Assembly: GCA_032718475.1 (NCBI GenBank) | Contig: JAUCBJ010004612.1 | Span: forward strand, 23,534 to 87,533 | Length of the DNA: 64,000 nucleotides | Source: Nemertoderma westbladi | Taxonomy: Eukaryota > Animalia > Xenacoelomorpha | Direction: 5' to 3' | Shown here: piece after piece, positions 30,931 to 59,240 of the stretch | How positions within the stretch are numbered: the stretch's first letter is position 1 | How the letters are laid out: every line of letters begins with the position of its first letter | Notes under the pieces: model-generated | What the model was told of the DNA's origin: nothing | Database searches by the model: none | Seen by the model: only the letters and a program-made list of their open reading frames with translations | Program-made: the position numbers and the translations under genes

Positions 30931-31213
30931 TATACGAGCATTAGTGATTATTATTATTATTACGCAGAACCAAATAATTTTTGATTATACAGTAGTTCCC
31001 TACCGGCTAATCAACCAATCAATAAACCGAATTTAGGCTATTTCTCAGTTTAAGACCTGTATTATTTTTGAAAATATCTTATATATAATCTCTTGCTTTA
31101 ATCACAATTAATCATTTGTAATGGTTTTAGTTTAAAAGTTTTTACTTTGTTTGTTTGTTTGATTTACAATTACTTTGTTTGTTTGTTTGATTTACAATAA
31201 AATAAATTAAATA

Positions 31214-31621: not shown

Positions 31622-31842
31622 TGTTGAATATGTTGATAATATCATTGATTCTTGACTTTTCCCACTATATTATAAATATTTTATGATTATTTATAAAATT
31701 TTGATGTTTTTAATTATGAAAAAAAAAACATCAAATTTTAAATAATCGAAAATTGTAGTAGTAATTGCATATACAGTATAACAGATTTGTTTGTTGTTGT
31801 GTATTGAGGTAATTATTTTCAATTTACTTTAAAATTTCGAAA

Positions 31843-32292: not shown

Positions 32293-32515
32293 AATTACAT
32301 TGAAAATGAGTCTATACTATAATTGGAAATAGCACCTTTTGTTGCAGCGAGCGTCACATACTGTAGTTGTGTCATATGTTAATTAAATATACAGTACTCT
32401 AATATTGTAGTTGCATCAATTATTGTTATATACATAGTAATGGTGATGGTTTATTGATATTGATATTTATATTATATTATATTGTATTGTTGATATATCT
32501 TAATAATAATAATAA

Positions 32516-33196: not shown

Positions 33197-33233
33197 TTAA
33201 TATTTTGTAACAATTTTCAATAATGTTGCAACA

Positions 33234-33419
33234 ATGAATAGACTTGTGCAGAAATATCGTAACGAACTGCAATTTCTACGCAGCGCTACCCCTCAACAAA
33301 GAACTAATTTTATTAACCATACCGCGAGTAACGAATTAATACGGCTCATTGTAAATACTGCATTAAATGTTCTAAAAGGTAACGTACTAATAATGGTTAA
33401 AACAGGAGTAACATTTTGA
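33234..33419 (+). pseudogene. truncated conserved small Polinton protein
   Basis: LQFLRSATPQQRTNFI...LIRLIVNTALNVLKGNV matches the small helical protein I recall following the ATPase in many Polintons. It ends abruptly after GNV. Confidence 0.6.
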
Positions 33420-33614
33420 AAATTATATTTAGTATCGAGTAAACCGTTAGCTACTGATTTAAAACCTCAAGATATACCTAGAGTAAATACTACAAAAAGA
33501 AAACCCTTTAAAATATCAACTTCAAAAAAAATAATTAAAAAATTTCAGTTGTTTTTACGGTGATGCCCTTTATAAGAGATTTGAATATACATATTACTTG
33601 CGGTTGTCGAAAAG

Positions 33615-34703
33615 ATGCCACGCAAGATGAAACCGATTTTAAGCCGAAGCTTAGTCAAAAAACTGTTAAGAATTTATTTAGATCCTTCATCCCCTGCGGG
33701 TTTTGCAAGTATCGTAAAATTAGCAAAAGCTGCAAACATCAAACCAGCTCAAGCCCAGAAATGGTTGAGCGGGCAAAAGACATACTCCCTTCACGCACCA
33801 CGTAGACATCATTATCCAACATCTAAAATATTTACGGGAGGCTTAAAATATATATATATGATAGATCTGGTGGATATGCAGCAATATAAATTGCAAAATA
33901 ATAATTATAACTATATATTAACATGTATTGATGCCTTTAGCCGGCTTGCTTTTGCCTATGGTATGAAAACAAAAAAGGGTATTGAAATTATTAGTATATT
34001 GCAAAAAATATTCCAGAAAGGAAAACCAAACAGAATCGCAACTGATCAAGGGTCTGAGTTTCTAAATAAATCTGTAAGGAAATATTTAGATACTATTGGT
34101 ATACAGTATTATGTAATGTATTCTGTGAATAAGGTGGCTATTGTCGAGAGATTCAATAGAACATTAAAAACAAAGATGTTCAAAATTTTCATGCAACGGG
34201 GAAATAATGTTTGGATAAAAATTTTACCGAAGCTCATTTATGCTTATAATAGGTCATATCATAGGACAATACAAATGACACCCATTGAAGTTAATAAATT
34301 TAATGAAACTGAATTAATGAATAGATTATATGGGAAATATAGACAGATTAATCACAAGAAAATAAAATTTAAAGTTGGAGATACAGTACGATTATCTATC
34401 GCTCGTACTGCTTTTGCTAAAGGCTATCGAGAACAATGGACACGTGAATTATTTATTATTCATCGGGTCAGATTGGATAGAGTACCAGCGGTAATGTTCG
34501 ATATTAAGGATAGCGCTGGAGCTATAAGAAACGGCTCATTTTATTCATACGAACTCCAAAAGGTCCACCCGAATAGTAATATTTATCTTCCGATTGACAA
34601 AAATATTGGCAAACTTAAAGAACGTGTACGCAATGGGAAAAAAGAATATTTAGTCCGATTCATCGGATCCAAGAAACAGTCGTGGGTACAGCATATTCAA
34701 TAA
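33615..34703 (+). CDS. int: retroviral-like (rve/c-integrase) DDE integrase with C-terminal chromodomain-like region
   Basis: YMIDLVDM, CIDAFSR, TDQGSEF, AIVERFNRTLK, YNRSYHRTI, FKVGDTVR, GSFYSYELQKV, EYLVRFIG...SWV. ORF intact. Confidence 0.95.
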   Translation: MPRKMKPILSRSLVKKLLRIYLDPSSPAGFASIVKLAKAANIKPAQAQKWLSGQKTYSLHAPRRHHYPTSKIFTGGLKYIYMIDLVDMQQYKLQNNNYNYILTCIDAFSRLAFAYGMKTKKGIEIISILQKIFQKGKPNRIATDQGSEFLNKSVRKYLDTIGIQYYVMYSVNKVAIVERFNRTLKTKMFKIFMQRGNNVWIKILPKLIYAYNRSYHRTIQMTPIEVNKFNETELMNRLYGKYRQINHKKIKFKVGDTVRLSIARTAFAKGYREQWTRELFIIHRVRLDRVPAVMFDIKDSAGAIRNGSFYSYELQKVHPNSNIYLPIDKNIGKLKERVRNGKKEYLVRFIGSKKQSWVQHIQ

Positions 34704-34966
34704 GTTTAGGTTTATACTGTATATTAATTCATTTTGGTCACATATGTCCGTAATTAATTAATCAATCAATATTAACTCGAATGATATTACTATACTATAG
34801 TTCATTCGCTTTAAATAAAGCCAGTAAAATATTGATCCCTCGCATATACTGTAGAAGTGGGAATGAACGTGGTCACAGATGTCTATAATTTAACATTATA
34901 CCGTACTGTACTGTACTGTATGTACAAAGGAGTCAAGTAGAGAGAGCTTAAATAATAATAATAATA

Positions 34967-37396
34967 ATGGCTGTAGATACATATATCACTCTACTTTCAG
35001 ATAGCTCATTAAACACTTACCCCAATAATAACCCTAGCGAGTTTACTGTTGATTTAGCCGAAGAATTATATATTGGTCCAAACGCTAAAATTGGACTCGC
35101 CGAGATACAATACCAAGCAACATACAGTAATATTACTCTGCAAACTCAAATCTTGCTGTCAATCGGGGTAGATGCAAAAGATGCCAAATTATACAGTTTA
35201 TTTCCTGGTATGCATAGCTCTATTCAAGTCATTATTGATGATATAAATAAACTGTTTAATTCTGAAGCGAAATATAGAGATTTCGAATTCATTTTTAATA
35301 CAAATAATTCTAGAATTAAATTTAAATTTCCTAAAAAGTTGAAAAAAATACAATTAAGTCTACGCGGTGATTTAATTCAAATTCTAGGCTTAAAACCGTT
35401 ATTGGATCAGAATCATCCGAGTATTCCGAATTGGGATATATACAGTACCACTACAGTGGATGAATTAAGCAATATAGAACAGCCGATATTAATTTTAAAT
35501 TATAGTGGACCAAAAATTTCGGAAATTGGGATTTTAGATTTTCCGGCTCCCACGAATATTACTCGTAATAAAGATACAATCTTCATATATACAGATATTA
35601 TTAAGAGCTCATTTGTTGGTGACGCTTTAGCACCGCTCTTAACCCTATTAAACCCGGGGGGGGGGTCAATATGACCCCTCCCGTGGTTTTTTTATTATAA
35701 TTCTGAAACAAACGCAGTTGGGAATCTGAAATTTTATGACTTTTCCTAAAAATCTATTGTCTTCCTAGTAGTGAAAACCGTTTTCAAAAATATTGGGTAC
35801 TTTTCGAGTTATAGCGCCATTTTTTAACCCTACTTTTGGCACTTTTTTTGAGACGTTTTTTGAAAATTACATTTCATTAAATATGAATTGTAACATCTCT
35901 ATTTTTTATTTACACGGGTTTTTTGGTGTTAGAAATTTGATGGAATTCATATAAATTGATTTAGAAATTTTAAACTTGTTTTTTTCGGTGGGTGCCAAAT
36001 TTTGGTGCCAGCACCAAATTTTGAAATAAGTCAATTTTGTAAATTGATCGTTTGAAACTTGTTTTTTACGCAATTGGGGTGTTTTGGGTTTCTGGATTCG
36101 AAGAAATATATACGAGTTGCACGAAGCGTATCAAACTTGTATTTTTCGGTGCTGTGTGCAAATTTTGGTGCTAGCACGAAATTTTGAAAATCCATTCAAT
36201 AGATAAAATTGCTTGTGAGAATTTATTTCTTGCGTTTTAGAGGTTTATGGCTGTTCTGAATTCAATGGAAAATATAATTATCGAACTAGACATCTCAAAC
36301 TTGTATTTTTCGGATGTGGGTGCAAAATGTGGTGCTAGCACCAAATTTTGAAAACCATCAAATATATCAATTGATTGTGTCACCTTGTTTCTTGCGTTAT
36401 ACGGGTTTGTGATGGTTCTGAATTCAATGGAATCAGTAAAAATTTCATAAGAGTTGTCCAACTTGTATTTTTCGCCGGTGGGTGAAAATTGTTGTGCCAG
36501 CACCAAATTTTGGAAAATATGCAAATTGATAAGTAGATAGTATCACCTTGTTTCTTGCGTTATATGGGTTTATGAGGGTCCTGAATCCGATGGAATCAAT
36601 AAAAACTGCACTGGACATCGCAAACTTGTACTTTTTGGTGATGGGTACGAAATTTGGTGCTAGCACCAAAATTTGCCAAATTACGCCGAAAAATACAAGT
36701 AGCAATGATCTAGCATATTAGAAATGTATTCCATTAGAATCAGCGCCCTCGAAAACCTGAAAATGTGAATTTATAGCATCGTATAAGTGAATTAAAAATT
36801 TTGTGTTCTAACTGAAAAGTGCTGGTTACTTGTTTTTTTCATTTTTTTCCTACGCAGAGAGGACTAAACAGCAATTTATAGTAATGATATCATTTTTTAA
36901 TATTTTCCAATGTATTTTACACCCCAGAAAACCTGTATTGAAAAATAATTAGCCGAAAATGTAACTTTCAAATTTGGTGAAAATTGTGCACTACTTGTAA
37001 TTTTGGTGCTGCAATATAACCACCCCAGTACATTTTTTCGAAAATTTTTTTTTTCGGTCGGATCCAGACAAGTGATACCTACGTACAAACAAAAAATCAG
37101 ACGTTTTCGTAAATATTTGTAGATTTTAGAGGGGGGGGTCAATATGACCCCCTCCCGGTATTTGTACAACATTTTATAGCCCGGTACTAATAGGGTTAAG
37201 AACCTGTCCTTTAACACAATTAAATCGAAAATATATTAATCACGAATACGAGAGCATTTGCTATTACCCGTTGTTGAATAAAAAACTAAAAACAATCTTA
37301 ATTACTTTACGTGACGGTCAAGGTGAATTAATTAATTTCAACGGTGGTCGCACTGTTATAACACTTAAGTTAATACGTGGTAGTGGTGATGGATGA
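34967..37396 (+). pseudogene. minor capsid (penton/PX-like) protein 1, interrupted by MITE D
   Basis: YITLLSDSSLNTYPNNNPSEFTVDL...IGLAEIQY...IFIYTDII...VGDALAPLL. After removing the MITE it continues in frame RTCP...YYPL...ITLRDGQGELINFNGGRTVITL to TGA at 37394-37396. Confidence 0.85.
35643..37195 (-). mobile_element. full-length TTAA-target MITE copy D, inside the Polinton
   Basis: TTAA at 35639-35642 and 37196-37199; reverse complement of copies B and C. Confidence 0.93.
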
Positions 37397-38238
37397 GTTC
37401 TACGTTAGACTACCAAGTAACTCCTGTCCAATTGATTTTCCTCGTAATACTGGTAGTAATTATCAGATCAATTTTCATGGCGCCTTACCTATAAATCCAA
37501 ACGAAAACTGGGTGGTAGGTATAAAAAGTATATGTTACTTAGCCACGTTACCGTCCATGTATAACAATGTAGAGAATGTTATTTTATTAAAAAAAGGGAA
37601 AAAAAAATTTGAGGATACACTTCCATCCGGTTTGTTCTACAGTATCAATGACATTATAGATTATTTTAACACTGGGGCGTTGAAAGATAAATTACAAATA
37701 GTTGAAAATACTCAGCAAAATAGGTTGCAATTTATTATAAGGAAAACTGTACGAGAGTTATTTATAGGTCAGTCAACAATTAGCCTATTATTTTGGAATT
37801 ACTGAAAATAATCTCGGTGCGAATTTAAATCCAAATTTTAAAATTATTTTAAAGACGAAAAATAATATAAAGTGTTATTTAATAAAGGTTATCGGAAATG
37901 AAGAAAAAGCTTACCAGATGGTATTTTTATGCCCTCAACCACCCAATTCTATTCCAGAACCTAAATCGAACATGTACGTGACTACTAATATAATTGAAAA
38001 TGAATATATTAATGACTTTGGTTTAGCCTTACTTCGTCGTGTCGCGATACCTGATGACGTGAAATATGGTAGTGTAATAAATAAAGAATTTGTCAAGGAT
38101 ACAATTCATTATATCCCTGTAAAAAAATCATATAAGATAACATACATTCATATTGAAATAACAGACAAAGAAGGAAAAGATTTGAATTTTGAATACGGCA
38201 CAACTTCAATTACCTTACACTTTAAAAAAATAAATTAA
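37389..38238 (+). pseudogene. minor capsid (penton/PX-like) protein 2, one frameshift near 37770
   Basis: MDEFYVRLPSNS...FPRNTGSNY...WVVGIKSICY, shift, then LAYYFG...MYVTTNII...LLRRV...YIPV...IHIEITDKEGKDLNFEYGTTSITLHFKK. Confidence 0.83.
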
Positions 38239-38239
38239 A

Positions 38240-38804
38240 ATGGATTCCGATTTATTTCAAAGATACAGTAAACCTCAATATGGTGGTGCAGACTCTAATC
38301 TTGCTGTTTTTAAAGGTGGTAGAAGTACGAGAGGCTCGACGCAAGTTCCTGTTTTTCGAGGTGGTTCATATATTGACCCTTAAGGACAACAAATTGGTGC
38401 ATTTGGTCCAAACTTAAAACAACGTCGTTTTCAACGTTATCGTAGAGGTATGTTGCGAACAAATCAACACGGGGAAGGTATATTTACAGACGCTTTATCT
38501 ACATTGAAAAAATTTGGTAAGCCATTAGCAAAAAAAAGTGTTACAAAAAGCTAAACCATTTACCACAAAATTTATGAGACAACACGTAATACCAAAAGGT
38601 AAGCGGGTCTTACATCAGCAGGCTAATACGGTTATTAATAAAGCATTAAATAAAATGAAACCATCAACAAGATCTGTTGTAGAAAAAGTTTATAGAGATT
38701 TAAAGCGACCTACTAGGCCAATGTCTATGAACATACATCATCGTCGTAGTAAAAATAGAAAAATAAAAGGCAAACTGAAACACTGCGAAAAAAGTATTTT
38801 TTAA
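38240..38804 (+). pseudogene. basic, Gly-motif virion core/membrane-active precursor-like protein (one stop, one frameshift)
   Basis: MDSDLF...QYGG...FKGG...FRGG...stop...QHGEGIFTDALSTLKKFGKPLAKK, then a K/R-rich tail (38538-38804). Located between mCP and MCP. Confidence 0.65.
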
Positions 38805-38806
38805 TA

Positions 38807-40066
38807 ATGTCAATTATTAAGGAATTAGATTTATTTTCTACACAGCCAATACAGACTGAATTTAAAGCAAAGCATTATGAAACAATTTACCCGGTATCCA
38901 ATCTCAGAAGTGAGTCTAGGGAAGTCACGTTCCTTGTACCAAGATCCAATAAATTTTATACGAAACTGCAAGATGCGTTATTAATTACAAAATATACTGT
39001 ACGGTGGGATAGACGACTTGAAAACTCCCATATTTATATGTTGAATTACCCTTCTGGGACTATGTGGAGTGATATTAAAATAGACCTTAATGAGAAGCAG
39101 GTTGAAAATAGCAATAACCATTATTTCTACAAGTCGTACTTATCCAATTTACTATTTACAACATACGAATCTAAAAATGGGCTACTGGGGGCGGGTGGCT
39201 TTCATCAGCCTTTATCTGAACACGGAAATGAAATTAATCCTGGTGCGCATCCTATTGGCGATGCCTTTAGTAAACAAATGCAATTTGTAAGTGGATTGAC
39301 AATTGATTTTGATACTGAAACTAAAATAATACAACCTGGGTATGATTTAAGAATGCATTTTAGAAAAGTATCAAATTCGTTTATTTTTAAAATCACTCCA
39401 AATGCAAACGCTGTGACAAATCTTCCGTTAGAATTAGATGAAGTAAAGATCCTAATCCCTAGAATGGAGGTTAATCCAGTAATAGAAAGCAGTCACCTAA
39501 AAGGTTTAGAGAGTTACGATATTGAATATCAATTCCAAAAAAAGGAGGTTACAATATTTACTATTCCCGCTCAAACCACAAATTACACCCAAACAAACAT
39601 ATTTGATGGTAAAAAACCCAAATTAGTTATTATCGGTTTTATAACAAATAATGCATATTCGGGAGAATTAATTAGTAACCCCTTAAAATTTGAACATTTT
39701 AACCTTAGATGCGCGGAACTGATTGTAGACGGTCTTCCAGTAGGTGGTGTAATATACGACCCTAATTTTACAGATGGAACATACATTTTTGAGTATACTC
39801 AATTAATGAAAAACATTAATACATATATTAACGGTTATGGAGGTAATAATATAGACCATGAAACCTACTTAGGTAATTGCCCACTCATATCCTGGGACCT
39901 AACCGCCGACGGCTATGTTAGAGATCCGCAACCTTCGATATATACTAACGGCCAATTAAAATTAAGATTTGCCGAACCGTTGGTTGAGACCATAAATGTA
40001 ATCGTTTTTAATATTTATGATCAATCATTAAGTTTAAATAGCAGGAAAGAAATACATATCGATTAA
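38807..40066 (+). CDS. major capsid protein (double jelly-roll, PY/hexon)
   Basis: KELDLFSTQPIQTE...YETIYP, YKSYLSNLL, KPKLVIIGFITNNAYSG...NPLKFEHF, WDLTAD, LRFAEPL. 419 aa, intact. Confidence 0.9.
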   Translation: MSIIKELDLFSTQPIQTEFKAKHYETIYPVSNLRSESREVTFLVPRSNKFYTKLQDALLITKYTVRWDRRLENSHIYMLNYPSGTMWSDIKIDLNEKQVENSNNHYFYKSYLSNLLFTTYESKNGLLGAGGFHQPLSEHGNEINPGAHPIGDAFSKQMQFVSGLTIDFDTETKIIQPGYDLRMHFRKVSNSFIFKITPNANAVTNLPLELDEVKILIPRMEVNPVIESSHLKGLESYDIEYQFQKKEVTIFTIPAQTTNYTQTNIFDGKKPKLVIIGFITNNAYSGELISNPLKFEHFNLRCAELIVDGLPVGGVIYDPNFTDGTYIFEYTQLMKNINTYINGYGGNNIDHETYLGNCPLISWDLTADGYVRDPQPSIYTNGQLKLRFAEPLVETINVIVFNIYDQSLSLNSRKEIHID

Positions 40067-40068
40067 GT

Positions 40069-40528
40069 ATGTTATCTACAGAGGACCTTGATATGTTTCC
40101 AGTGGGTGGTCACTGGTCACTATTTGGGAGCGTTTTCATCTAACAAATTACCTAAATTAGATAATAATAAGCGGAGAGATTATGGGTTAATAGTAAACAC
40201 CAATAAAGAGCATCTACCCGGGGTTCATTGGATAGCTATATATATACGAGATAATGAGGCTGAATTATTTAATTCATTTGGACCAAAATATCCAAACAGA
40301 TGTATTGAAAAATGGCTTGAGAAAAATTCAGCAAGTTGGCGTACTACCCGGAAACAATTTCAAGACCCCAGGAGGACCACATGTGGATTATACTGTCTTT
40401 ATTACTTGGTAAATCGAATTCACACAAACTATCCAATGAGAGCGTTTACAAATAATGTGGAAATAAATGAAATAATATTATATAAATGGCTTGTTAATTA
40501 TTATAAAATAAACCAACAAGCGTTGTAA
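40069..40528 (+). CDS. adenain-like (C5) cysteine maturation protease, probable N-terminal frameshift
   Basis: YLGAFSSNKLP, IVNT...PGVHWIAI, LFNSFG, QFQ...TTCGLYC. The nearest ATG (40069) is out of frame with the 40088-40528 ORF. Confidence 0.9.
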
Positions 40529-40559
40529 TTAATCATTTAACTTTTGTTTATCAGATAAA

Positions 40560-41159
40560 ATGGATAATATTATTTTTGTTGATTTTCAATATTATACGAT
40601 AGACAATAAGGAATATCCGGTAGTATTTAAAGAATTTGCTATATTCGATTCTAATTACAACAAAACTAATGTAAAGACATTTTTAATTAAAGGTCCACCT
40701 AATATTAAGTTATCAGCATTAGATAAAGCTCACGTAAACAATTTACGAGACATGACTTCGTATTTACCTTGGGATTACAGTGTCATTTCGCAAGATGATT
40801 TTAAAAAGTACATGAAGAGACATTTAAAATATAAAAAAAATATACATGTATTTGGGTTGATGAAGCGGGCAATATTAGTTTCCCAACTTGATGTTCTCGC
40901 ACCAAATTCGATGGAGAAATTGTGGATATATCAATATCAGCGATATTACAACTATTTAACCCCCTGTCGCTTCCATAATCAATTTATTACAGTAGAAAAT
41001 AAATGTGCTTTCCACTTAAACACAAGGGATAACTGTCTGCGGTACTGCTCTGCAAAACGAGTCGGAGGGTTTGAATTGAAACAATTTTTCGTGAGAAAGC
41101 GTTTAACTGACACTGATGATAAACAGAAAGAAATAACTGCGGTGAATGATGTACAGTAG
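40560..41159 (+). CDS. DEDD/RNase H-fold exonuclease-like Polinton accessory protein
   Basis: IIFVDFQ...VFKEFAIF...FLIKGP...LPWD, and C-terminal CxxH-x8-YCSA resembling DEDD-like proteins of Polintons. Catalytic set looks degenerate. Confidence 0.5.
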   Translation: MDNIIFVDFQYYTIDNKEYPVVFKEFAIFDSNYNKTNVKTFLIKGPPNIKLSALDKAHVNNLRDMTSYLPWDYSVISQDDFKKYMKRHLKYKKNIHVFGLMKRAILVSQLDVLAPNSMEKLWIYQYQRYYNYLTPCRFHNQFITVENKCAFHLNTRDNCLRYCSAKRVGGFELKQFFVRKRLTDTDDKQKEITAVNDVQ

Positions 41160-41658
41160 GTTTACTCTAAGCATGTAATGTGATGGGATAATATAATTGT
41201 TTTAATGTCAATAAAAATAATAAAAACATTAAAATCTATTTTTTTATATCTCAGTTTGACTGAAGGTGTAGGGCTTAAGTTTACACTCACAAACACACCG
41301 TACCTACCGGTAGCCGGCTGTTGTATCAGAGTTTAACTCAGTAGCTAGCCGGCTTTACACATACAGTCATATAGCAACAACGCTAAACTGTAGAACGGCA
41401 GAATGGCACCCCTTTCTAGAGTGACAGCACCCACAGGGCTTTAGCGTTACTTACTAATAATAAAATTAAATTAACCTGACATGAGGTTCGTGAATGCAGC
41501 ATTAGAGGGGCCCACCTAACAATAGGCCTACTGGTACCAGCACTGTAGCTCTCTTGTAACTGTATACTTGGATAGAGCAAGGGCATGCAGGTTTCTTTGA
41601 TTTAAGGATTACGCTATTACACTTGAATGCTTCCAATTTTCTGTTTACAACTTTAATT

Positions 41659-41848
41659 GCTACTACTGTTGCATAGGCAAGCCTATACAGCTATAGTTAA
41701 CTTTATGTGGCCCCCTTTTTCGAATGTTGACTCAATATGGTTGGTCTAATCTACATTACTGTGGGCTACTACTGTTGCATAGGCAAGCCTATACAGCTAT
41801 AGTTAACTTTATGCGGCCCCCTTTTTCGAATGTTGACCCAATATGGTT
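41659..41848. repeat. 84-bp direct repeat (2 copies, period 106)
   Basis: GCTACTACTGTTGCATAGGCAAGCC...AATATGGTT at 41659-41742 and 41765-41848. Confidence 0.95.
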
Positions 41849-42198
41849 TACAGTTAACCTTTAGAACTCACACTAGGCGCACCTTCATTCGGTTAGGCAT
41901 ATAGGCCTAATCACTACTCCTCAACTGAAAGCCGCCTAGCACATTGATACAATAGGTGTGGCTAGCAATATATAAAATTCACTGCTCCCAAGTTCATTCA
42001 TCCACTTCATGTTGTAGGCCTATAGGCCTATAAAACATAGTTAGTTTATTTATGTATTCGCTTTTTTTTTAATTAGATATAAAATATAAAATATACAATA
42101 CAATACAAAAACCTACTGATACCGGTAACACACATTAACCCTCTACCTAACAGACGTGACTAATTATATAGGCCTATGAGTCTACTTGCTGTACGAGT

Positions 42199-42552
42199 CT
42201 ACTGACGTATTCTCGGATCAGATGGAAGTAGTAGAGTTGGTGTTGGAACTGGAGCTGCTGCTATATCTTCATGTTCATCCCAGTTCTCTCCCCTACTATA
42301 ATTGTCCAGACTTATCTGATGCGCTTCTCCAGGTTGTACTCTAACGTTTAAATTGAAGTTTTTATTGGTCGTCAATGTGGTTTGGTGACCTTGGCTGCCG
42401 CTGGTTTTATTTTTAATCATTATTGTTATTTCACCGTTGTTATTTTTTAAATGTAATTCAGTTACATTTAATGATGTAAAATAAAGGTCGTCTCCATCAA
42501 CATCAAATTTTAATAAACAGTCGCCGATATTTTCAATGAAAGAAAATGCCAT
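42199..42552 (-). CDS. Polinton hypothetical protein (~117 aa from MAFSF)
   Basis: ORF with beta-rich N-terminus. ATG in good context is preceded by CCAACAT repeats. No known motif. Confidence 0.5.
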   Translation of the reverse strand: MAFSFIENIGDCLLKFDVDGDDLYFTSLNVTELHLKNNNGEITIMIKNKTSGSQGHQTTLTTNKNFNLNVRVQPGEAHQISLDNYSRGENWDEHEDIAAAPVPTPTLLLPSDPRIRQ

Positions 42553-43297
42553 CTTGGATGTTGGTGTTGGATGTTGGATGTTGGTTGATTGATAGAAGGA
42601 TTGTCGGAACTGAAGTTTGTTGAGGTTAGTTTTTTTTTTTTTTTTCAAATATGAAGATAAGTTAGGCCTAGTCTATACCAGTATTTATTTTTTTATTTTA
42701 CGGTAGGGAAACAAAATTATAGTTCACTGTTAGAAAAATTGAGTTTATATATATTTTTGTAGAGGGTCGCAGATGTTTAGATTACAAAATTCTCATAGTT
42801 AACAAAATGCACAACATAAACCTTTCCCATGCAGATTAGTTAGCGATATATGCTCTGTTCGTTGTTCTATTCTGAATGTAGGGAGATGCATAGCTGATGT
42901 TTTAATAATATGTACCAGTATACAGACTAGTAACAGATAGGAGGGCATCGTCTTTGACTATGAATACCAGCACATAGCCCTAATCTATTCTCACCGAACT
43001 TAGCGTTGCCTGCTGCACACACGCACACTCATAAGTAACAGATGCGCTATTGTAGCTCACTCGTGAGCAGCGATGCTTAGTTAGCTAGCTAGCTACTGCC
43101 ACTGAGTATACTATGCCTACTTGAGTGTTACAAGCAATCGCTCTACTGAAGTTAGTTAGTTAGTTAATTTCCCCCAACTAGTTGTTGATTTTAAAAAAAT
43201 ATTCATAAATTTTTTTCCAGCCAAATTTAATATATATTTTACAGTAAAAATCTCCACCACCAAACAGCAACAACAACAACAATAAATTTCACTCGCA

Positions 43298-43879
43298 CTA
43301 ATTATATTTTACATCAAAAACCCTCGCACCAAACAATAATAAATTATTAACCAGTTTGTTGAATATAGGATAATATATATGAAATTTAAACGGGGAACAC
43401 ATTAATGTACATTTACCAGTGTAGAAGCAGCAAACAACAACAATATTATTTATTCTGACTTTACAGTTATTGAATATTTTGGGCTCGTATGAAATTTCTA
43501 GTTTAACATTATCAAATATAACATAAAACCCGATATTGTTTATAAGTAACCTATAAATTACGGTATCGATACTAAAAATATAAGTACACAAATTGATTGA
43601 TTTAAAAATCAAATTAATGTTTGTTTTTTCGAATATATGCTTTTTCACTTTATTAAAATTATATTTTCTACCGAGAATTGTTATTCGTCCATTTGTAAAC
43701 ATTAATATGGTTGCACCAAATACCTTATATATAAACTGATTAGGTTTGAGTACAATTTTACCAGTCAATTGATTTTTTAATTCTTTTAAATTAAGTCCAT
43801 AAATGATCTGCTTACAACTTATATTTTTATTTACTATTTGATAATTCATCATCAACACCATCGTCTTTTGGTTCTTCAT
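43298..43879 (-). CDS. TATA-box-binding protein (TBP)-like protein
   Basis: Two TBP-type repeats: QIVN...LNLKEL...TILMFTNGRITILGRK (cf. TBP QLQN...LDLKTI...TALIFSSGKMVCTGAK) and SYEPKIF...VVCCFYTGKCTL (cf. SYEPELF...VLLIFVSGKVVL). About 185 aa, the size of the TBP core. Confidence 0.78.
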   Translation of the reverse strand: MKNQKTMVLMMNYQIVNKNISCKQIIYGLNLKELKNQLTGKIVLKPNQFIYKVFGATILMFTNGRITILGRKYNFNKVKKHIFEKTNINLIFKSINLCTYIFSIDTVIYRLLINNIGFYVIFDNVKLEISYEPKIFNNCKVRINNIVVVCCFYTGKCTLMCSPFKFHIYYPIFNKLVNNLLLFGARVFDVKYN

Positions 43880-46800
43880 AAATTGGTATATTTGATAATT
43901 TTATAGGTTTTTTGAGGTTTGTTTTATAGTGCCCCCAAGGAAGTGATTGATTTTTATTAACCCAATAAAGTTTATCATCAAAGCTACTGAGTGCAAATTT
44001 ATTTTGCTTTAAGGTATAAATACGATGTAATTTAGATTGAAATCTGTGTATGTTTTTTTTATTTCTTCATTTGAGTTATATGCTTTTAAATATTCTTCAT
44101 GTGTAATATTCGTTTCCACAACAGCTCTTGTAATACCTTTTGCTCTACGAATATTTTTGTTATTCCATTCCAAAATTGAATATAATTTTGGTCTTAAAAA
44201 TACTGCTTGTTTAATTTCACGTGAAGCTAGTTCATCTTTACAGTAATAAAGTCTCGATTTATTTTTATCGCTGTAGAGAGGGTGATCCTTAGGGTAATTG
44301 GATGTATCTAAAAAATTATTTTTAATTAATGCTTTTAAAAAATTATTCTGCGATGTATTATAGTAACAACCTATTAAAGAGTCGGTATCTGATGCAGCAA
44401 TTTCAATACGGCAGTTTAATTCTTTCTCAATAGGTAGCAATTTATTGTAGAACAGCTCATACATATCCAATTTAGCCAAGTCCAACACAGTGCTACCAAT
44501 AAATATAGGCTTATCGAGAGTTACAGAGTCTTTCACTAATAAATGTCCCGATAATGTATTATTGTATATTATAAATTGTTCATGATTAATACGATTTACC
44601 AATTGGTCGCATTTATCAAGGCTATTTGCGATACGAAAGTTACATCGATCTCTTATCTTTTCTATTGATTTACCAAATAACGAATTATTAAGCAATTTCG
44701 CGACAGCTGTTTCAATGTAACTTTTTGCTAGTCGCCTTTGATTAATATTAAAATCTATGTAATTTTTAAATACAAATTCTTGTTGAAAAGAATATAATTT
44801 ATGTAGTTTAGTAACAATTAATCCATGTTTTATATAAAATTTTAACAGTTTCAAATGTAAATGATAAAACTCTTTATCAAATTGCATCAGCAAGAGTTTT
44901 GGTATAGGCATCCTATATTTACAGGAGGTACCTCTTTGTATCAATAAGTTATTAAATTGTTCCCTCATATAAGGTGAATGCATTGATTCATTTATACTTA
45001 AATGCTCTGGAGCTAACGGTAATTGTAATGTTTGATCGTGAATAGCTTTGGGATAATTTAAATCACATATTAAAAAATATCCAGTAGATCCATCAATGTC
45101 TAAATCTACCAAGTACTCGATTAGTTTTTCTGGAATTGCATTCTCTAAATGTTTAATACTTACTTCTTTGAATTGTGAGGTGGGTAGTTTTTTACTTAAA
45201 TTCCCAGAATATAAAGAGTTGAAATCAATATTAAAAATATGGCATTCTTCCTTAGTAGAATCATATGTACTTGTTCCTGGTATATTTGATTCTATATAAT
45301 GCTTTCGACAAAATGAAACACCACCCCTAATTGATTTTTCAAAATCTCTATATGTCTGATAATCCTTTATTAATTCTATTTTACATTTATTATATTTTAG
45401 TGCGCAATCATAGGTAAATGACGCGATACTACAGTAAAAAACCGCTTCTAAATCGTAATTTTGTTTACAAACATTCCTAAAATTCTCAAATATATCAGCA
45501 AGCAAACAAACATCGAGTTTTAAATAGGCTAAAAGATAATCTTTGAGATTCACACAGTCGAATTGTACCCATGATAATTCCGCAAACCTATAATCTTCAA
45601 TTGTGCATGTTTTTTGACTTAAGTTACTAAAAAAATTATTTATAGACGGCAAACCAGTATCATTAAATTTATTTATATTTGTCAAGTACTCGTATGGAAA
45701 TACTCCTTTCCGTTTAATTGTTGAGTTATTCAAGTTTGGATAAAAATATTTCATTTCTTGTAGAGTAATAGGTAAAATTGAGCTTATATCATGACTCGCT
45801 ACATCCTTTGTTGAACACTCAACTAAATTACTTAAAGAAAAGCTTAAAAATTGATATGTGTCTAAGAAACGTAACTCAATTTTTTTAGAAGTGTTTTTAA
45901 TTGGGATAAAAGCACTCAGTGAAATATATCGTTCTGTATTTCTCGGTATAACCTTTATATCCCAATCTGTGTATTTCTTATCTCTAAATCCGGTTTGTAA
46001 TATACAATGTATATCATAATTACTGGAATTATGCCCGCAAAGTACATACAGGTATCGTTTCAATGATAAACTTCGGTTACAACTATTACAGGCTGCCGCA
46101 ATATATTTACCTGTAATATGTGAATGATGTCTGTTTTTCCCTACATTATTATTTAAAGTAACATTACAATAGAAACAAAATTTTGCTTGTTCAAAATTTA
46201 CAAAATCAATATTAGTAAATGACATAGTTTTATGAGTGTATATTTCTGACCAACAACATAATTCAGTTAAATCAGTATATAATGAATCTAAGAAATCTTG
46301 AATACAATTATTATTATTTGACTTTACGAATGTTTTCAAACGACATTTTGGAGCATCAATTAATTCAGTATTGGGAACAATTAAATAACTCACAGCACAC
46401 GGTATATGCTCCTGTTAAATTTGATTATTAACTGAAGGTTGTAAGATACATTCTATATCAAAGTAGGTGACAAACAATGGGGATAAAGTTCTATCTAAAT
46501 TTGTAAAACTAATGTGTGTTCTTTTTTTATTAGGTAGTTTCTCTCGTTGACTTCTTCCTTGGTAGCATGCGAGACGGTGTCGATGAAGAACTTCCGCTCG
46601 AAAAAAATGAGCCAAACACCTTTCACAATATTTCCTATTCCCGATATGAAGAGCTCTCGTATTCAGCAATCGATTCAAGTTAGTTATGCAAACATAATGA
46701 TTCAGTTTAGGTACATTGTTATTTTTTACTACAAGTAATATATTTAATAACTGTTTATCAGGTGTAATTTTACTAAACGGAGGTTGTCTTAATATAGATA

Positions 46801-47885
46801 CAGGGGTGCGTTTGTTGTCGTTATTCCAACATAGTAAATTAATTATATATTTTGAATTTTGTTTTTCAAAAAGTTTAATCGCTAACTGCCACTCTGTTGG
46901 ATAATCATTTTTCCCGTTGTCAAAAATGAAATGACTCATATAATTTTTGTACGACGAAGTAAGCTGTTTGTTGTTTTTCACTTTGCTACCAAATTTTGCG
47001 GTTATAATAGCCCATTTGAAACAGTCATTATCAGCCGTTTGTATATTTATTATACAATTTTTACCTGATAGAGCCTTAGGTAATTCCATATATCCATGCC
47101 CCTTATATAGTAACGACCTACACTTAGATTCAGCTAATTTAATTTCAACCCTTAATAAAGATTTAATACGCCACCCTGAACCACGTGTGTTAAAGATGGC
47201 TATTTTTTGTAATATATTTTCCACCACATACTCAAACCATGTGTCAAAACTTTGTGATGAATCTACAGTATTAATAGCACCACCAGAAGAATTAAAATAA
47301 AAAGTTTCCAATTGCTCGCCTTCTGAAAAAATGTGATCTGTACATTAATACATTTAGACCTAACCACAGTCTAAGAACATTCATTTCTTTCAATCTATCT
47401 AATATTAACTGAAGAATATTACCTCGAATTTGCGTTAATGCTGTTTCTACATCGGGATAATCTCTAGAAGTTGGGAGGTCATGGACATAAATTTCAAGAC
47501 GATTATCGTGAGCTTCTTGTTCCCGCGTAAAAATTGTTGCGCATGTACCAAGAGCCACCCTTAATTTTTTTCTGGATAATATATTTTTATGTTGCGAAAA
47601 TTTACGCTTTCTTGTGTAGTAACATTTCAAGTGACAATCGTGTTGTAAATAATTCTCATATGTATACTTTTTATTAAAGGTAGAATAAGTCAATTGATAG
47701 GTACGGAACTCCATTTCTTTACAACCAGTAGTTGATTCATGTCGTTTACAAATTTCGCTGCATGAAGTCACGACATGACACTTAAAACAAGAATAACCTT
47801 CAAAATGTGACCGTAGGTGGCGTAAATAATTATGTCTAGTTACATTCATATGACAGAATGAACAACATATTGTTATTTTATCCAT
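43827..47885 (-). pseudogene. polB: protein-primed family B DNA polymerase, three lesions
   Basis: N-terminal C2H2-like fingers; GSGW; INIQ...DCFKWAI; YFDIECIL; HNSSNYDIH; FLDTYQF; KGVFPYEY; DFNSLY; KLLNNSLFGK; SDTDS. C-terminus ALSSFDDK...LPWGH appears after a homopolymer frameshift (~44055). Also a frameshift at ~47300 and an in-frame TAA at 46415. Confidence 0.95.
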
Positions 47886-48033
47886 GCTGAAGTTTGTTTA
47901 GATAAATAATAATAATAATAATAATAAAATATCTCCAAAGATTAAAATAAAATGAAATGAAATGATATTGACTATATCTAAACATTTATATGCTAGCGAG
48001 TGAAATAATTTTAAACCAATCACCAAACACCAA

Positions 48034-49146
48034 TCACCAATCGCCTATGGGTATTGGAAACCTCAAAGAGTTTAACTTATGATCAATGTTAGGATAATAA
48101 TCTGGTTTCCATGGAGAATTAGTAACTGGATCTACTGGAGCTGGGTTAACAGCAACTTTCTGTTTCTTTGTAGGTGATGCGTTGGTAAATTTACTCGATG
48201 ATCTTGGCTTCCGAGGTAATATTTCAGGAAAGACCTGTTGCGGTTGAGAGCAACTCTCTCCAACATCCGGATTAGGTGATGGGATCTCTACGAATGCTTT
48301 AGGTTTATCCAAAAGGACAAAACCATCTACATTGGCTTCAATAAGAGAAACGCCATCCATAGCCTCTTTGAGAAAACTAATATGGGCTTTATCATTCAAG
48401 TAATGCAACTCAATAGAATTTCCACCTGCTCCTACTTCAGTAGAATTATCGGTGTTGGTGATAATAATTTTTTTATTATTGGTTTTAATCATTTTGAGAC
48501 GGTCTGATAATTGAATGATATTTTTATCAAAAAGATGCTTGTCTGGTTCATCAATTTGAGTGTCCCACTCTCGCAACAAAACGGTTAGTTCCTGATTTGA
48601 CAAATTGAAACCCGTATAATAGTCAAAACCAACACTATCAGCGTATCTGATGCTGATTTTCCATAAGCCAACATAGTTGGTTCCTTTAAAAGCTGTTACA
48701 AATCCAATAAACTCTGGATTTGATAATTCAATGTAGAATTGATCGCTAATAATCTCTAGCGGTGGAGAGAGAAATTGCAATAATTTCCCTCTGTATTGAA
48801 TTAGAACTTCAGTAAAAGCTTTGTTGAGGACTTTACATTTGCCTTGTTTCTGAACGTAAACATCACCCGATGTGGGGTTGATAGAAATATTCAAATTTCC
48901 CCGCGCAAAACGAAGAGCAGCATATATCCTACCTGGTATAATTGCTGGTCTGGATTGATGTTGGTTTTTGGTTGTTGTTTCTAGAATGTCTAGCAAATAG
49001 CGGGTATCTTGATGGGAAAAACAAATTGATTCGTTGTCCTCCTGAGATTCCACAATAAAATATTTGCTGTGAACGGCGGTACAAGTATATTTATTGTAAG
49101 TAAATTTCCAGCTATTTGTTGCTCCGGTTTTTTGCGTTAAGGCCAT
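48034..49146 (-). CDS. 370-aa protein with a PC4/Sub1-like ssDNA-binding domain and C-terminal NLS
   Basis: FVTAFKGTNYVGLWK-x13-TGFNLSNQELTVL resembles PC4 VSVRDFKGKVLIDIREY...KGISLNPEQWSQL. PTKKQKV resembles an SV40-type NLS. Confidence 0.6.
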   Translation of the reverse strand: MALTQKTGATNSWKFTYNKYTCTAVHSKYFIVESQEDNESICFSHQDTRYLLDILETTTKNQHQSRPAIIPGRIYAALRFARGNLNISINPTSGDVYVQKQGKCKVLNKAFTEVLIQYRGKLLQFLSPPLEIISDQFYIELSNPEFIGFVTAFKGTNYVGLWKISIRYADSVGFDYYTGFNLSNQELTVLLREWDTQIDEPDKHLFDKNIIQLSDRLKMIKTNNKKIIITNTDNSTEVGAGGNSIELHYLNDKAHISFLKEAMDGVSLIEANVDGFVLLDKPKAFVEIPSPNPDVGESCSQPQQVFPEILPRKPRSSSKFTNASPTKKQKVAVNPAPVDPVTNSPWKPDYYPNIDHKLNSLRFPIPIGDW

Positions 49147-49210
49147 AATAATAATAATAAATATGAAAAATATTATAAGTGATAAATTTTAAACCGTATC
49201 GCTGTAATAA

Positions 49211-49491
49211 ATTGACACCATAGTTCTCACTCTAAAATTGTGTTTGGATGTAAGGAAGAATTTATAGTATCGATGAATAAATATTCATTCATCGATACTA
49301 AAAATTCTCCCTCACATCCAAACGAGATTTCCTTTGAGTTACATAATTACATTTAGAAACCCAATGTGGGAATCAGTATCATTTATTCGAGTGATTCCGA
49401 CCAATGAATATACAACGAGTAAGATAATGTAGAAATTATTAAGGAAATAACACAATTTCAGAGTGAGAACAAAAAATTAGATATGGTATCA
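49211..49491. promoter_or_regulatory. nested inverted repeat / fold-back structure upstream of the PC4-PolB-TBP gene block
   Basis: Inner arms 49242-49278 and 49287-49323 (~37 bp, 3 mismatches). Outer arms 49211-49244 and ~49449-49491. Confidence 0.6.
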
Positions 49492-49820
49492 ATATATTAC
49501 CATGAAGATTACAAGTGATGAATTTTAACAAAAACATTCAGTTATATATAAGTTTCTGAATACGTATGGATGTGGCATAATCAATGTAGAAGAGATGGGA
49601 TGTGGCATAATCAATGAATAAGAAAAGAGATGGGTTGCAATGTGGATGAATGGTTGCGTGGATAGGAAATACGTGAAAGAATATGAATCATTGGGTTGTG
49701 CGTAATAATAATCAATAATTATAATAAAAACGCACAGTATAATGTTAGTAGTAGCCTTTCAATATGGCACAGATGCTGAGGGATCGGTTAGCTTGAGTAA
49801 CTACTATGGAAATGTGAGAA

Positions 49821-50251
49821 CGTGTAGTTGACGCGTGGCGGAATTTCATGTATCATACTGGCTGGTTGGTTGGTTTGTTGGTTTGGCGACAGCAGTCGAG
49901 GAGTTGGCAATCGATATAATATAATATATAATATGCGTGATGCGTGTAGATGGCCACGTCGTCATTGTCGTCACCATATACAGTATACAGTGGTGGTAGC
50001 GTGGCGGTGGTGGTGGTGGTAACGTGGCGAAAAGGTGAATAACATTAGGGTTAGTTAGTCAGTAGTCGAGTAAGGCGGGCATCGCGAGGTTAGGCTATGC
50101 TACGATTGGTTGATGGCAACTGCCGATGGTGACATATGGCGCGCTCCGCAATTTAGCACCGGAATTTGGCATTTTGTAAAGGCCTCCGAATGGAATGCCC
50201 ATAGCCCAAGCTAGGGAGGACTATGGTGGGGACACTTCTTCTCCTACTACT
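49821..50251 (-). repeat. Polinton right terminal inverted repeat
   Basis: Reverse complement of the left TIR; ends CTACTACT followed by TSD TACGCC. Confidence 0.95.
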
Positions 50252-55052: not shown

Positions 55053-57329
55053 CAACCCACCCCAAAGCCAAATATAAACTAAAGATAAGCAGCATGTTTG
55101 TGGAATAGCAGTTTGAACCTTCATTAAAATCCCCCCACTGCGCTATTGGTACAGTAATAGCAATTGGTGATGCAACTATTTCTATTGTGAAGTGTCTTTC
55201 CTGTTTGGCAAACAATGTATAGACTGGCACAATGGCTGGATGGAGCCAGTCTGGCATGCTGGATGATTTTAGTGGTTGGGAATGAGTGTTCATGTTATTC
55301 CTAATTGTGTTACATAAGACCTCTTGTATTATTTATCTTATTAAAAACCACGGGCTTTTGGCTGTGCCGCATGTGCGAAAGGGGAAGGGAAATTTTCTAC
55401 TTTGCAGAGACTATATATAGTAAGGCTATAAGAGTAAGGTTCAGGTTCAGGCTATAAGAAAAAATCCCTCTCCTCAACATTGGAGTTTGAGACAGGGGGG
55501 AAACTGGACGCAAAACCCGCCTTGGCGAATTAATATCCCGCCTCAATGTTAAATTCTCAATTTAGGGAAATGAACAGGTTACAGTGGCACGTTATTCTAA
55601 CGAAAACAATAAACTAAACAAAATCAAACAGGTTACAGTTTTATTTTGCTCGTAAACAGCTGTTATTTGCGTCCAATTTCCCCTGGAGAGGGATGAACTT
55701 TTATTGCGTCCAGTCCCCCCCCCCCCCCCCCCTCATATCCGTGGAGTTTATACCCAGACTCCACCAGATGATGTTAAATCGACACCAAAAAGAAAGAGGT
55801 TATGGAAAATAATCTGTTTCATAGAAGTTTTTATTAATTTATATTTTAACCCTATTAAACCCGGGGGGGGGGGGTCAATATGACCCCCCCGTGGTTTTTT
55901 TATTATAATTCTGAAACAAACGCAGTTGGGAATCTGAAATTTTATGACTTTTCCTAAAAATCTATTGTCGTCCTAGTAGTGAAAACCGTTTTCAAAAATA
56001 TTGGGTAGTTTTCGAGTTATAGCACCATTTTTAACCCTACTTTTGGCACTTTTTTTGAGACGTTTTTTGAAAATTACATTTCATTAAATATTAATTGTAA
56101 CATCTCTATTTTTGATTTACACCGGTTTTTTGGTGTTAGCAATTGGATGGAATTCATATAAATTGCTTTAGAAATTTCAAACTAGTTTTTTTCGGCGGGT
56201 GTCAAATTTTGGTGCCAGCACCAAATTTTGAAATATGTCAATTTTGTAAATTAATTGTTTGAAACTTGTTTTTTACGCAATTGGGGTTTTTGGGTTTCTG
56301 GTTTCGATGAAATATATACGAGTTGCACCAAGCGTATCAAACTTGTATTTTTCGGTGCTGTGTGAAAATTTTGGTGCTAGCACGAAATTTTGAAAATCCT
56401 TTCAATAGATAAAATTGCTTGTGACAATTTGTTTCTTGCATTTTAGAGGTTTATGGCTGTTCTGAATTCAATGGAATATATAATTATCGAACTAGACATC
56501 TCAAACTTGTATTTTTCGGATGTGGGTGCAGAATGTGGTGCTAGCACCAAATTTTGAAAACCATCAAATATATCAATTGATTGTGTCATCTTGTTTCTTG
56601 CGTTATACGGGTTTGTTAGGGTTCTGAATTCAATGGAATCAGTAAAAATTTCATAAGAGTTTTCAAACTTGTATTTTTCGCCGGTGGGTGAAAATTGTTG
56701 TGCCAGCACCAAATTTTGGAAAATGGGTAAATTGATCAGTAGATAGTATCATCTTGTTTCTTGCGTTATATGGGTTTATGAGGGTCCTGAATACGATGGA
56801 ATCAATAAAAACAGCACTGGACATCGCAAACTTGTACTTTTTGGTGATGGGTACGAAATTTGGTGCTAGCACCAAAATTTGCCAAATTACGCCGAAAAAT
56901 ACAAGTAGCAATGATCTGGCATATTTGAAATGTATTCCATTAGAATCAGCGCCCTAGAAAACCTGAAAATGTGAATTTATAGCATCGTATAAGTGAATTA
57001 AAAATTTTGTGTTCTAACTGAAAAGTGCTGGTTACTTGTTTTTTTCATTTTTTTCCTACGCATAGAGGACTAAACAGCAATTTATGGTAATCATATCATT
57101 TTTAAATATTTTCCAATGTATTTTGCACCCCAGAAAACCTGTATTGAAAAACAATTAGCCGAAAAATGTAACTTTCAAATTTTGTGAAAATTGTGCACTA
57201 CTTGTAATTTTGGTGCTGCAATATTACTACCCCAGTACATTTTTTGAAATTTTTTTTTCGTGCTAGCACCAAAATTTGCACATAGCACGGGAAAAATACA
57301 AGTTTGATACGCTTGGTGCAACTCGTATA

Positions 57330-59240
57330 CAGTCGGGGTCTCAAAGTGCATCTGTTCTTTGAGGTTTTCTCAAAGTTTTTCTAAAAGTGTCTAAAAGTCA
57401 TAACATTGCTCCCAACGGCCGCTTTGAATTCTTGTAGACACTTTTAGTTGGGAATCTCAAAGTGATTTCCTGCTTTTAGGCACTTTGAATTCTTTTAATT
57501 CTTTGAGAAATGTCACTTTTAGGTAGTTAGCGGCACTTTGAATTCTTTGAGAAAATAAACTCCGAGGTATTCGTGATTGACAGCTCTCGTGGTAAGTTAA
57601 CTGAGAGGCAGAAGCATTCTCGGGGAACCATGTCATGCGGGCAACAAAGTGATACTTGTGGGCCGGCCAGTTATTGCCTAGAAGCTATTCCCATTAATTT
57701 ATCACATTGAGGTTCCTGGGGTGATTATGGGATGGGTTTTCGGTCGCAAGTACAAATTGAATTTACGGCGCCCTTTGACAAGCATTCTACGCCCCTCCCC
57801 CTCCCCCCACCCTCCCTCCCCTTCTATTTGGAAATAAAGACCTTTTATAAAAGTCTTTCTAAAAAACATTCTTAAAAATCTAATAATACATGAAACATAA
57901 TTAGTGAGACAAGATTAATGCTTGACAAGATTGATTAATTTAATAATAACATAATACAATATAATATAATATTAACAATTAATATAAGAGAAACTGCACT
58001 GTAGTTTCTCTGTGTACGCAGTTTCATTACAATGACCTGAAGAAGCCCTGTTGGGAGAAAGCAATAGTAATAACTTTTGTCATTCATTTCATTAGTCACC
58101 TGAGGTCAACCCGTGCTACCTTAACTGTTTAATATGTTAACTACGGTGACGAGAGCGCGAGAATTCCTTCTTAAAAACTAAGAAAGGCCTTCAACTTTCA
58201 AGTAAGATAGAACGGCTACAATCTTGTGTTGTTTTAACTTAATAGAGATATTAAAATATCCCCTGCCGCTGGCGTTTATATTTGAGCATATTTTAAATGT
58301 TTGCCTGATATTCAATTGATGTGTACCGCCTTCTGGCAAAGCGGCACCCAGTTTAAGCTATCAATCACAGCCAGCGAGTAGCGTTGTGTTTCAAACAAAC
58401 AGGTGCAGGCAGAGCCGGAAAGAACTGTCGTAGGCTTTACTTTGCTTGTGGTACTTAATAGATTTTGGCAGACTGGGCGGTCGCTCTGACAATATGCATT
58501 GCGCACCAACAATGCCTAAAACATCTATGGGAACAGCCAATTAGTGAGCTGAGCTCGAATCATTTCTCTTTATTCCTGCCTCTATATTTATTCTTTACTT
58601 TGTATAACACAATTTACAGTGCGGCAAAGAAGGGCTGGTTGACAATTGAAATGCATTGGTAAAGGAATACAAACAAATTTTGGTAAACAAATTTAAACAG
58701 TACTATACATTAATATAGATAGGGCAACAGACAAACTGTCTAAGACACAAATACCAACACATTACGATAGCCCCCAATTATGGCGTCTCGAAAGAGTCAA
58801 AATATTAATTAATAAAACCTCTCTGAAACAATAAAAATACCTACAAAAAAATACTGCAGTAATAAATATTAGTTACTGCAATAACATATAATAATTACTG
58901 CAGTAACAAATATTTATTACTGCAGTAACAAATATTTATTACTGCAGTAACAAATATTTATTACTGCAGTAACAAATATTTATTACTGCAGTATTTTTTG
59001 GAGGCACATTTATTGTTTTATAGAGGTTTTTATTACTTATATTTTGCCCTTTAGTAGTCAATGTCAATATACCCCATACCATTGCCAGTTTCAGGCATGA
59101 CTGTATGAAATGACTGACAGTACTACTTTGAAATCTTTGAGGACACTTTGTCATTTTCTTGGACCACTTTTAGAACTTTGAGTCACTTTTAGTTCTTTGA
59201 GAAAATCTCAAAGAACAGATGCACTTTGAGACCCCGACTG
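57330..59240. mobile_element. non-autonomous Tc1/mariner/pogo-like DNA transposon (1.9 kb)
   Basis: TIRs CAGTCGGGGTCTCAAAGTGCATCTGTTCTTTGAG.TTTTCTCAAAG (~46 bp). Intact MITE has CGTATATATTTC; here CGTATA|element|TATATTTC, i.e. a TA duplication. Confidence 0.88.
58795..59048. repeat. fold-back with central 22-bp tandem array of palindromic TTACTGCAGTAA units
   Basis: Unit TTATTACTGCAGTAACAAATAT about 4 times, flanked by imperfect inverted arms (AAAACCTCT...AAAAAATACTGCAGT / ACTGCAGTATTTTTT...AGAGGTTTT). Confidence 0.75.

Follow-up and report, generated by a model that had tools for sequence, protein, structure and literature searches.

A divergent TATA-binding protein homologue in a decayed Polinton of Nemertoderma westbladi and candidate promoter words in related elements

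Polintons or Mavericks (adintoviruses; PMC8502044) are known by their terminal inverted repeats (TIRs), a 6-bp target duplication, a DNA polymerase of family B that is primed by a protein (pPolB), an rve integrase, a packaging ATPase, an adenain-like protease and capsid genes. In the present work we have analysed 64,000 nucleotides of contig JAUCBJ010004612.1 from the Nemertoderma westbladi assembly GCA_032718475.1 (the window), which hold a whole, decayed copy of such an element. Close to its right end lie a hairpin, an open reading frame (ORF) of 370 aa, the pPolB gene and an ORF resembling the TATA-binding protein (TBP), which an earlier note had put forward as a candidate self-contained module that may supply two transcription factors, one PC4-like and one TBP-like, to the capsid genes. 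We find that the TBP arm of this proposal is real and testable, while the joint module of hairpin, PC4 and TBP is not established. The explanation that we favour, and to which we would give an even chance, is that the TBP is a one-protein selector of late promoters beside a separate replication helper, the 370-aa protein, which would bind single-stranded DNA (ssDNA). The minus-strand block would be read first, from host-type promoters; the TBP would then pick a private TATA-like word before the virion, packaging and integrase genes of the plus strand and recruit host TFIIB, through its acidic stirrup, and RNA polymerase II to the virion genes. The 370-aa protein would coat the single strands displaced during strand-displacement replication. 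What our data show of this is the homology of the TBP, its retention in one pPolB clade, the kept phenylalanines and the enrichment of the words.

In print we found no more than a few labels on TBP genes in these elements. A TBP label appears in the legend of Fig. 5 of PMC8502044 and the labels 'MOSUB' and 'SSDBP' in its Supplementary Fig. S2; in its text we found neither an analysis of the genes so labelled nor any promoter word or distribution over clades. Searching the literature for TBP, PC4 or capsid promoter motifs of Polintons, Mavericks or adintoviruses, we found no study of such a system, only these figure labels, and the searched text of PMC11161782 and bioRxiv 2026.06.19.733378 mentions neither TBP nor PC4. 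A described parallel is ORF24 of Kaposi's sarcoma-associated herpesvirus, from the beta/gammaherpesvirus late system with its TATTWAA box. It is likewise a TBP-fold protein with needed phenylalanines and a variant TATA word, in a virus without its own RNA polymerase, but it is large, works in a set of six viral activators and is without the acidic residues that contact TFIIB (PMC12529657). The Polinton TBPs, in contrast, are bare cores of 167-205 aa which mostly keep the TFIIB-contact residues and have no evident partner set; a Pfam scan of the element's ORFs detected no partner families of the six-protein herpesvirus complex of viral transcription activators. By analogy, the Polinton TBP would resemble the herpesvirus TBP mimic in its working, though it does not belong to that system. 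Mirusviruses and nucleocytoplasmic large DNA viruses encode their own RNA polymerase; none was found among the ORFs of our element. These two groups of viruses also have TBP-like genes (African swine fever virus B263R; PMC5825884). With cellular TBP (PF00352) the Polinton proteins share the two-repeat core, three of the four intercalating phenylalanine positions and an EPELF-type stirrup; they differ in that a single-sequence search is too weak to find them, the first phenylalanine site is mostly replaced and the loop of the N-terminal repeat is rewritten.

The TBP homologue and its distribution

The TBP-like ORF matches PF00352 in two stretches with 25.1 bits (E 1.6e-5, cut-off 22.9); its match to the TBP model of NCBIfam is weak (E 0.008). 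Single-sequence searches with this protein returned no relative, and relatives surfaced only through loci anchored on pPolB. For these, 499 pPolB relatives were collected, an alignment was made and 82 loci were taken, two viral ones plus the top 80 of the 154 from metagenomes. An iterated search of their 869 ORFs revealed TBP-like genes in nine of the 82, and a six-frame search of the same loci gave no further one. All ten family members, the window protein included, match PF00352, and when the family profile (A2) was run against the PDB, 35 TBP chains came out on top (E 2e-22 to 2e-16), the next unrelated entry standing at 0.19. The identification as a divergent TBP homologue, as the earlier note had it, is thus confirmed by profile comparison, even though the relatives are only 15-24% identical to the window protein. 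Three phenylalanines, F52, F127 and F143, are invariant in all ten, and the asparagine of the first repeat, N8, is present in nine. From alignments of the family profile with PDB chains, and from the yeast numbering, we take these phenylalanines to be three of the four that TBP intercalates. Both stirrup glutamates occur in eight of the ten proteins and at least one in every protein, the C-terminal stirrup being much better conserved than the N-terminal repeat. Of the two proteins in which the acidic stirrup is incomplete, one is that of the window; because this copy carries private substitutions, we do not take its deviations for traits of the family. The acidic stirrup has been named as critical for the contact with TFIIB (PMC12529657), and we infer from the retained residues that the TBP-like protein may still bind both TATA DNA and TFIIB.

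Could the fold have been co-opted outside transcription, like the TBP-like domain of RNase H3, for example to bind nucleic acids in replication? The gene stands directly behind pPolB in the window, and RNase H3 was the top match (Z 5.5, with TBP 1mp9 at Z 4.2) of a single-sequence model of low confidence (pLDDT 33.9). The sequence profile, however, matches true TBPs only, and in two loci, L007 and L014, the gene is part of the virion cluster and immediately precedes the ATPase, so we regard such a role as very improbable. Foldseek runs on the low-confidence models of this and the 370-aa protein were uninformative.

In a quick tree of 65 of 83 pPolB rows, which left out L032, L035 and other short loci, the window polymerase falls on a long branch within a clade of 29 rows (SH-aLRT 100). 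Inside this clade all five loci of at least 9 kb carry TBP, as against one of ten outside it. The earlier note had called for a survey of the two factors alongside pPolB: TBP does recur, and TBP genes and PC4-looking genes are each found without the other. The position of TBP varies, from directly behind pPolB (window and L039), through one or two small genes further on (L027, L032, L033 and L035), to the virion cluster of L007 and L014. A more distant TBP-like gene outside the main clade, at L060:7051-7641 on the minus strand and head to head with pPolB, is possibly a separate capture. As a side observation, the TBP-less pPolB clade of L049, L056, L062 and L064 has deoxynucleoside kinase genes, two of these loci also having genes with a NADAR domain.

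Words before the virion genes

If the TBP selects promoters, a shared word might stand before the genes that it serves. We searched from -100 to -10 nt before the virion and integrase genes. The word [CT]ATAAAC is present in nine of nine such regions of L007 and L014 (Bonferroni 4e-7 for ATAAAC), which are not nine independent events since the two are sister elements. Elsewhere it is practically missing: 0/20 regions in five other TBP loci, 0/11 in four long TBP-less loci, 0/28 in short loci and 1/8 in the window. Those five other TBP loci (L022, L027, L032, L039 and L060) have a different word, TTAAG[CT], in 8/20 regions, compared with 0/9 in L007 and L014, 1/11 in the long TBP-less loci, 2/28 in the short loci and 2/8 in the window. 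The four long TBP-less loci, with 11 regions, had no enriched word, their best Bonferroni value being 17. When each locus was tested on its own, permutations did as well as the real word in 0/300 cases for both L007 and L014, 6/300 for L022 and 2/300 for L027. The best word of the window, ATACAT, precedes five of eight virion, packaging and integrase genes and none of four minus-strand genes (14/1000 permutations as good; Bonferroni 0.49). The two sister elements thus give a strong word signal, two further elements a moderate one and the window a modest one.

Several points, apart from the kinship of L007 and L014, speak against a TBP that selects private promoters. L039 has a TBP and no significant word of its own (105/300 permutations as good), and just one TBP-less locus, L056, was rich enough in genes to be tested on its own (265/300). 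The ATACAT words of the window are not only weak statistically; their spacing is scattered from -28 to -98, three of the five lie inside upstream coding sequence, and the word has no strand bias, the element carrying 13 sites on either strand. As for the protein, the first phenylalanine site holds Phe in two of ten rows and mostly Leu or Ile, in a part where the alignment is uncertain, and in the TBP tree one of seven branches is supported, the window protein being on a long branch.

It may be, then, that the protein has no private word at all and acts as a decoy or a general booster, tying up TFIIB, NC2 or Mot1 or replacing a limiting germline TBP. This would accord with the weak word of the window, the lack of a significant word in L039 and the far better conservation of the C-terminal stirrup. 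We nevertheless think this unlikely, since the three intercalating phenylalanines have stayed invariant at such low identity and the words differ by subclade, as is expected if DNA specificity drifts together with the protein. The selector remains our preferred reading of the TBP, and the suggestion of the earlier note, that virion transcription is served by factors from the element, gains support for TBP alone, through its conservation in the clade, its kept residues and the words, and not for a pair of factors.

Other words gave less. TATAAGA, tried as the word of the element, was rejected, as it stands before only two of 11 plus-strand genes. The string TATAA[CG]AGATTTG, chosen after the fact, is common to the upstream regions of the RING and integrase genes. 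TATAAA is found within 120 nt upstream of three of four minus-strand genes and within 150 nt upstream of two of 11 plus-strand genes; this difference, weak in AT-rich DNA, is our ground for proposing host-type promoters for the minus-strand block.

The 370-aa protein, the hairpin and the antisense RNA

Is the 370-aa protein PC4-like, as the earlier note had supposed? The frame itself is real (chance 7e-12); the differences between the window copy and contigs of the family, five synonymous among 15, point neither way. PC4/Sub1, PURA and the PC4 homologue of phage T5 (PF02229; PMC7549692) have in common with it the beta4-alpha repeats, here predicted, and a place adjoining a DNA polymerase; they differ from it in that it has no significant sequence or profile match and would carry three to four units in one chain. 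No match with E below 0.1 was found in Pfam, PHROGs, NCBIfam or PDB sequences, and PF02229 was not matched by the whole ORF or by four fragments. A low-confidence model from the single sequence (pLDDT 34.8) has a pattern of four strands followed by a helix that comes three to four times, and its residues 1-69 match PURA repeat III at Z 6.2 (root mean square deviation 3.1, 56 aligned), tied with an unrelated KhtT domain; MoSub1, PC4 and the T5 homologue follow at Z 4.4-4.8, Borrelia Pur-alpha is also among the matches, and none reaches Z 8. A PC4/PUR-like fold is therefore a lead only, taken from a model, and PC4 identity is unproven. The likeness may be no more than a common beta-meander with a helix, which we consider a serious possibility, somewhat below an even chance. 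Every sequence and profile test is negative and the best fold match is shared with KhtT; on the other hand, the strand-helix pattern recurs, PURA, Borrelia Pur-alpha, MoSub1, PC4 and the T5 protein all match the same residues, PC4-like domains mostly have no sequence similarity to each other (PMC7549692), and a true PC4 gene adjoins pPolB in L037.

That gene, a tandem one, was the single Pfam PC4 match among the 150 of 181 candidate ORFs scanned, and no TBP is present on the 7.6 kb of L037. By eye, two further families, F10 and F20, have a tandem PC4 look and stand directly before TBP in five of the nine TBP loci (L022, L027, L032, L033 and L035); in these five we also noted that the F10 frame runs 215-435 nt into the beginning of the TBP frame. 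An F10/F20 gene occurs in L028 too, where no TBP was seen, and a third PC4-looking family lies behind pPolB in five loci without a visible TBP (L049, L050, L062, L063 and L064). No recognisable PC4-looking gene was found in the remaining four TBP loci (L007, L014, L039 and L060), all at least 11 kb long. Profiles of F10/F20 (A5) and F23/F56 (A6) matched no PC4 chain in PDB or PHROGs, nor each other, the PC4 of L037 or the 370-aa ORF; an Atlas search with the F20 protein of L033 gave nothing above 0.75, and a predicted complex of the L035 TBP with the F10 protein (score 0.00, with alignments unused) speaks neither for nor against their pairing. In L014, two paralogous genes of 150 aa (L014:13037-13486 and L014:17674-18138) have no library match and, judged by eye, may encode OB-fold ssDNA-binding proteins.

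The PC4-like and TBP-like proteins might form a joint initiation complex for late genes, encoded by the element and controlled by the hairpin. The shared strand and tight packing in the window fit this, as does the placement of F10/F20 before TBP, but the four long TBP loci without such a gene, the PC4-looking genes where no TBP was seen, the varying gene order, the lack of established homology between the 370-aa ORF and F10/F20, whose profiles it did not match, and a comparable inverted repeat in just one of eight TBP loci scanned, most contigs there lacking the TIR-side region, make it quite improbable in our view. Since they occur beside pPolB without TBP and are missing from four long TBP loci, PC4-looking genes track pPolB more than TBP. 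The PC4 homologue of T5 is described as a replication factor (PMC7549692), and therefore a replication helper is the plainer reading of the 370-aa protein, which is more likely to serve replication than to be a TBP partner. Weighing against this are the protein's lack of any detected relative, in the 82 pPolB loci as elsewhere, the 225 of 1000 shuffles that score as high against a profile of PC4 and PC4-looking units, and, again, the position of F10/F20, which suits a partner.

The hairpin postulated by the earlier note is real: its inner arms of 48 bp are 85% complementary, with folding z of -11.9 to -14.3 that 0/100 shuffles equalled. Its interior appears to vary among copies, and most relatives do not share it. 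An Rfam scan gave 16 matches, all under the gathering score and of generic pre-miRNA shape; there is no G.U strand bias (3 vs 2), and the arms have no match elsewhere in the window or in the 82 loci. The TATAAA that lies 120 nt upstream of the 370-aa ORF is inside it. Across the interior (49244-49387) DNA depth falls to between a few percent and about one fifth of the flanks in run X3 and in runs X1 and X2, which are the same sample, and loose ends there carry other inner sequences, some mutually complementary. The interior (49244-49410) appears to differ among family copies while the base is conserved; either the hairpin itself varies above a constant base, or the assembly has produced the difference. 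In run X4, DNA by guess and RNA-like in behaviour, we noticed plus-strand GT..AG joints (46678>48174, 46678>47680, 47821>48174 and ~42620>46534), whose acceptors are strongly polypyrimidine and whose exons hold no long ORF; DNA runs X1 and X3 have none of these joints. This one run suggests a spliced antisense RNA across the TBP, pPolB and 370-aa genes (42623-49230, plus strand).

The element and its meaning for Polinton biology

The element is a Polinton by all its features (Table 1). Its TIRs of about 430 bp start with AGTAGTAG, TACGCC is duplicated at both flanks, and the pPolB has 499 relatives (best E 1e-133). The capsid genes were assigned by homology to those of related loci, there being no Pfam match. 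The earlier note was right about the three co-oriented, tightly packed minus-strand genes, the 370-aa ORF being 148 bp away from pPolB and the tail of pPolB overlapping the TBP-like start by 26 nt, and about their facing the virion block, with which they converge. It had rightly placed pPolB between the two genes and overlooked that in this copy pPolB is in four pieces, the first assigned from position alone, with an in-frame stop at 46415-46417 and the frame shifting close to 47.3 kb and 44.0 kb. It also overlooked a fourth minus-strand ORF, of 117 aa, behind the TBP-like gene. The present copy cannot replicate itself, its polymerase and minor capsid genes being broken. Thousands of short contigs of DNA runs X1 and X3 fall on the stretch, in many variants, and so the family has many copies. 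The host repeat that breaks the minor capsid region is about 1.5 kb long and multi-copy (24081-28293, 35638-37190, 55865-57330 and 3816-4551); it contains 163-bp units and ends in short palindromes. A possible DEDD-type exonuclease gene (40560-41159, plus strand) weakly resembles (E 0.08) a family in L006, L014, L027, L032 and L059.

Table 1. Features of the Polinton copy and of related loci; positions refer to the window unless a locus is named, and those beside F10/TBP overlap give the region in which the overlap was noted
Feature	Position	Strand	Remark
Whole Polinton/Maverick copy, decayed	30514-50251		19.7 kb; TIRs 30514-30931 and 49820-50251
RING-finger gene	31843-32292	+	near left TIR
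ATACAT	32430-32435	+	86 nt before packaging ATPase
Packaging ATPase	32516-33196	+	
TATAAGAGATTTG and ATACAT	33571-33592	+	44 nt and 28 nt before integrase, respectively
Integrase (rve)	33615-34703	+	
Minor capsid gene region	34967-38238	+	in pieces; ~1.5-kb host repeat inserted (about 35638-37190)
ATACAT	38142-38147	+	98 nt before putative core-protein gene
Putative core-protein gene	start 38240	+	
ATACAT	38733-38738	+	74 nt before major capsid gene
Major capsid gene	38807-40066	+	
ATACAT	40052-40057	+	41 nt before adenain-like protease
Adenain-like protease	40093-40528	+	
ORF, 117 aa, no assigned function	42199-42552	-	745 bp downstream of TBP-like gene
TBP-like gene	43298-43852	-	intact, with two TBP repeats; 184 aa, or 193 aa if read from the upstream ATG at 43879
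pPolB	43827-47885	-	four pieces
Orphan ORF, 370 aa	48034-49146	-	predicted 3-4 beta-beta-beta-beta-alpha units, then low-complexity tail
Nested inverted repeat (hairpin)	49190-49500		inner stem 49235-49330; outer stem formed by 49223-49244 and 49449-49470
F10/TBP overlap	L022:8810-9743		
F10/TBP overlap	L027:7511-8399		
F10/TBP overlap	L032:1896-2826		
F10/TBP overlap	L033:4842-5739		
F10/TBP overlap	L035:1539-2460		

Whether Polintons form particles is a long-standing question. A bolder picture, to which we would give little credence as a whole, is that this clade of animal Polintons has the smallest known viral late switch: a captured TBP whose DNA-reading face would have drifted together with its private word (ATAAAC, TTAAGC or ATACAT) while docking to host TFIIB, with tandem PC4-fold cofactors, and with a variable hairpin and a spliced antisense RNA that would shut the early block. 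The PC4 and hairpin parts contribute little until their identity is established. A conserved TBP with matching words would, by contrast, give natural pairs of TBP and word across subclades, which predict reciprocal specificity. If our reading of the TBP is true, these elements would offer a parallel to the herpesvirus late switch carried by a single small protein, and natural TBPs of altered specificity.

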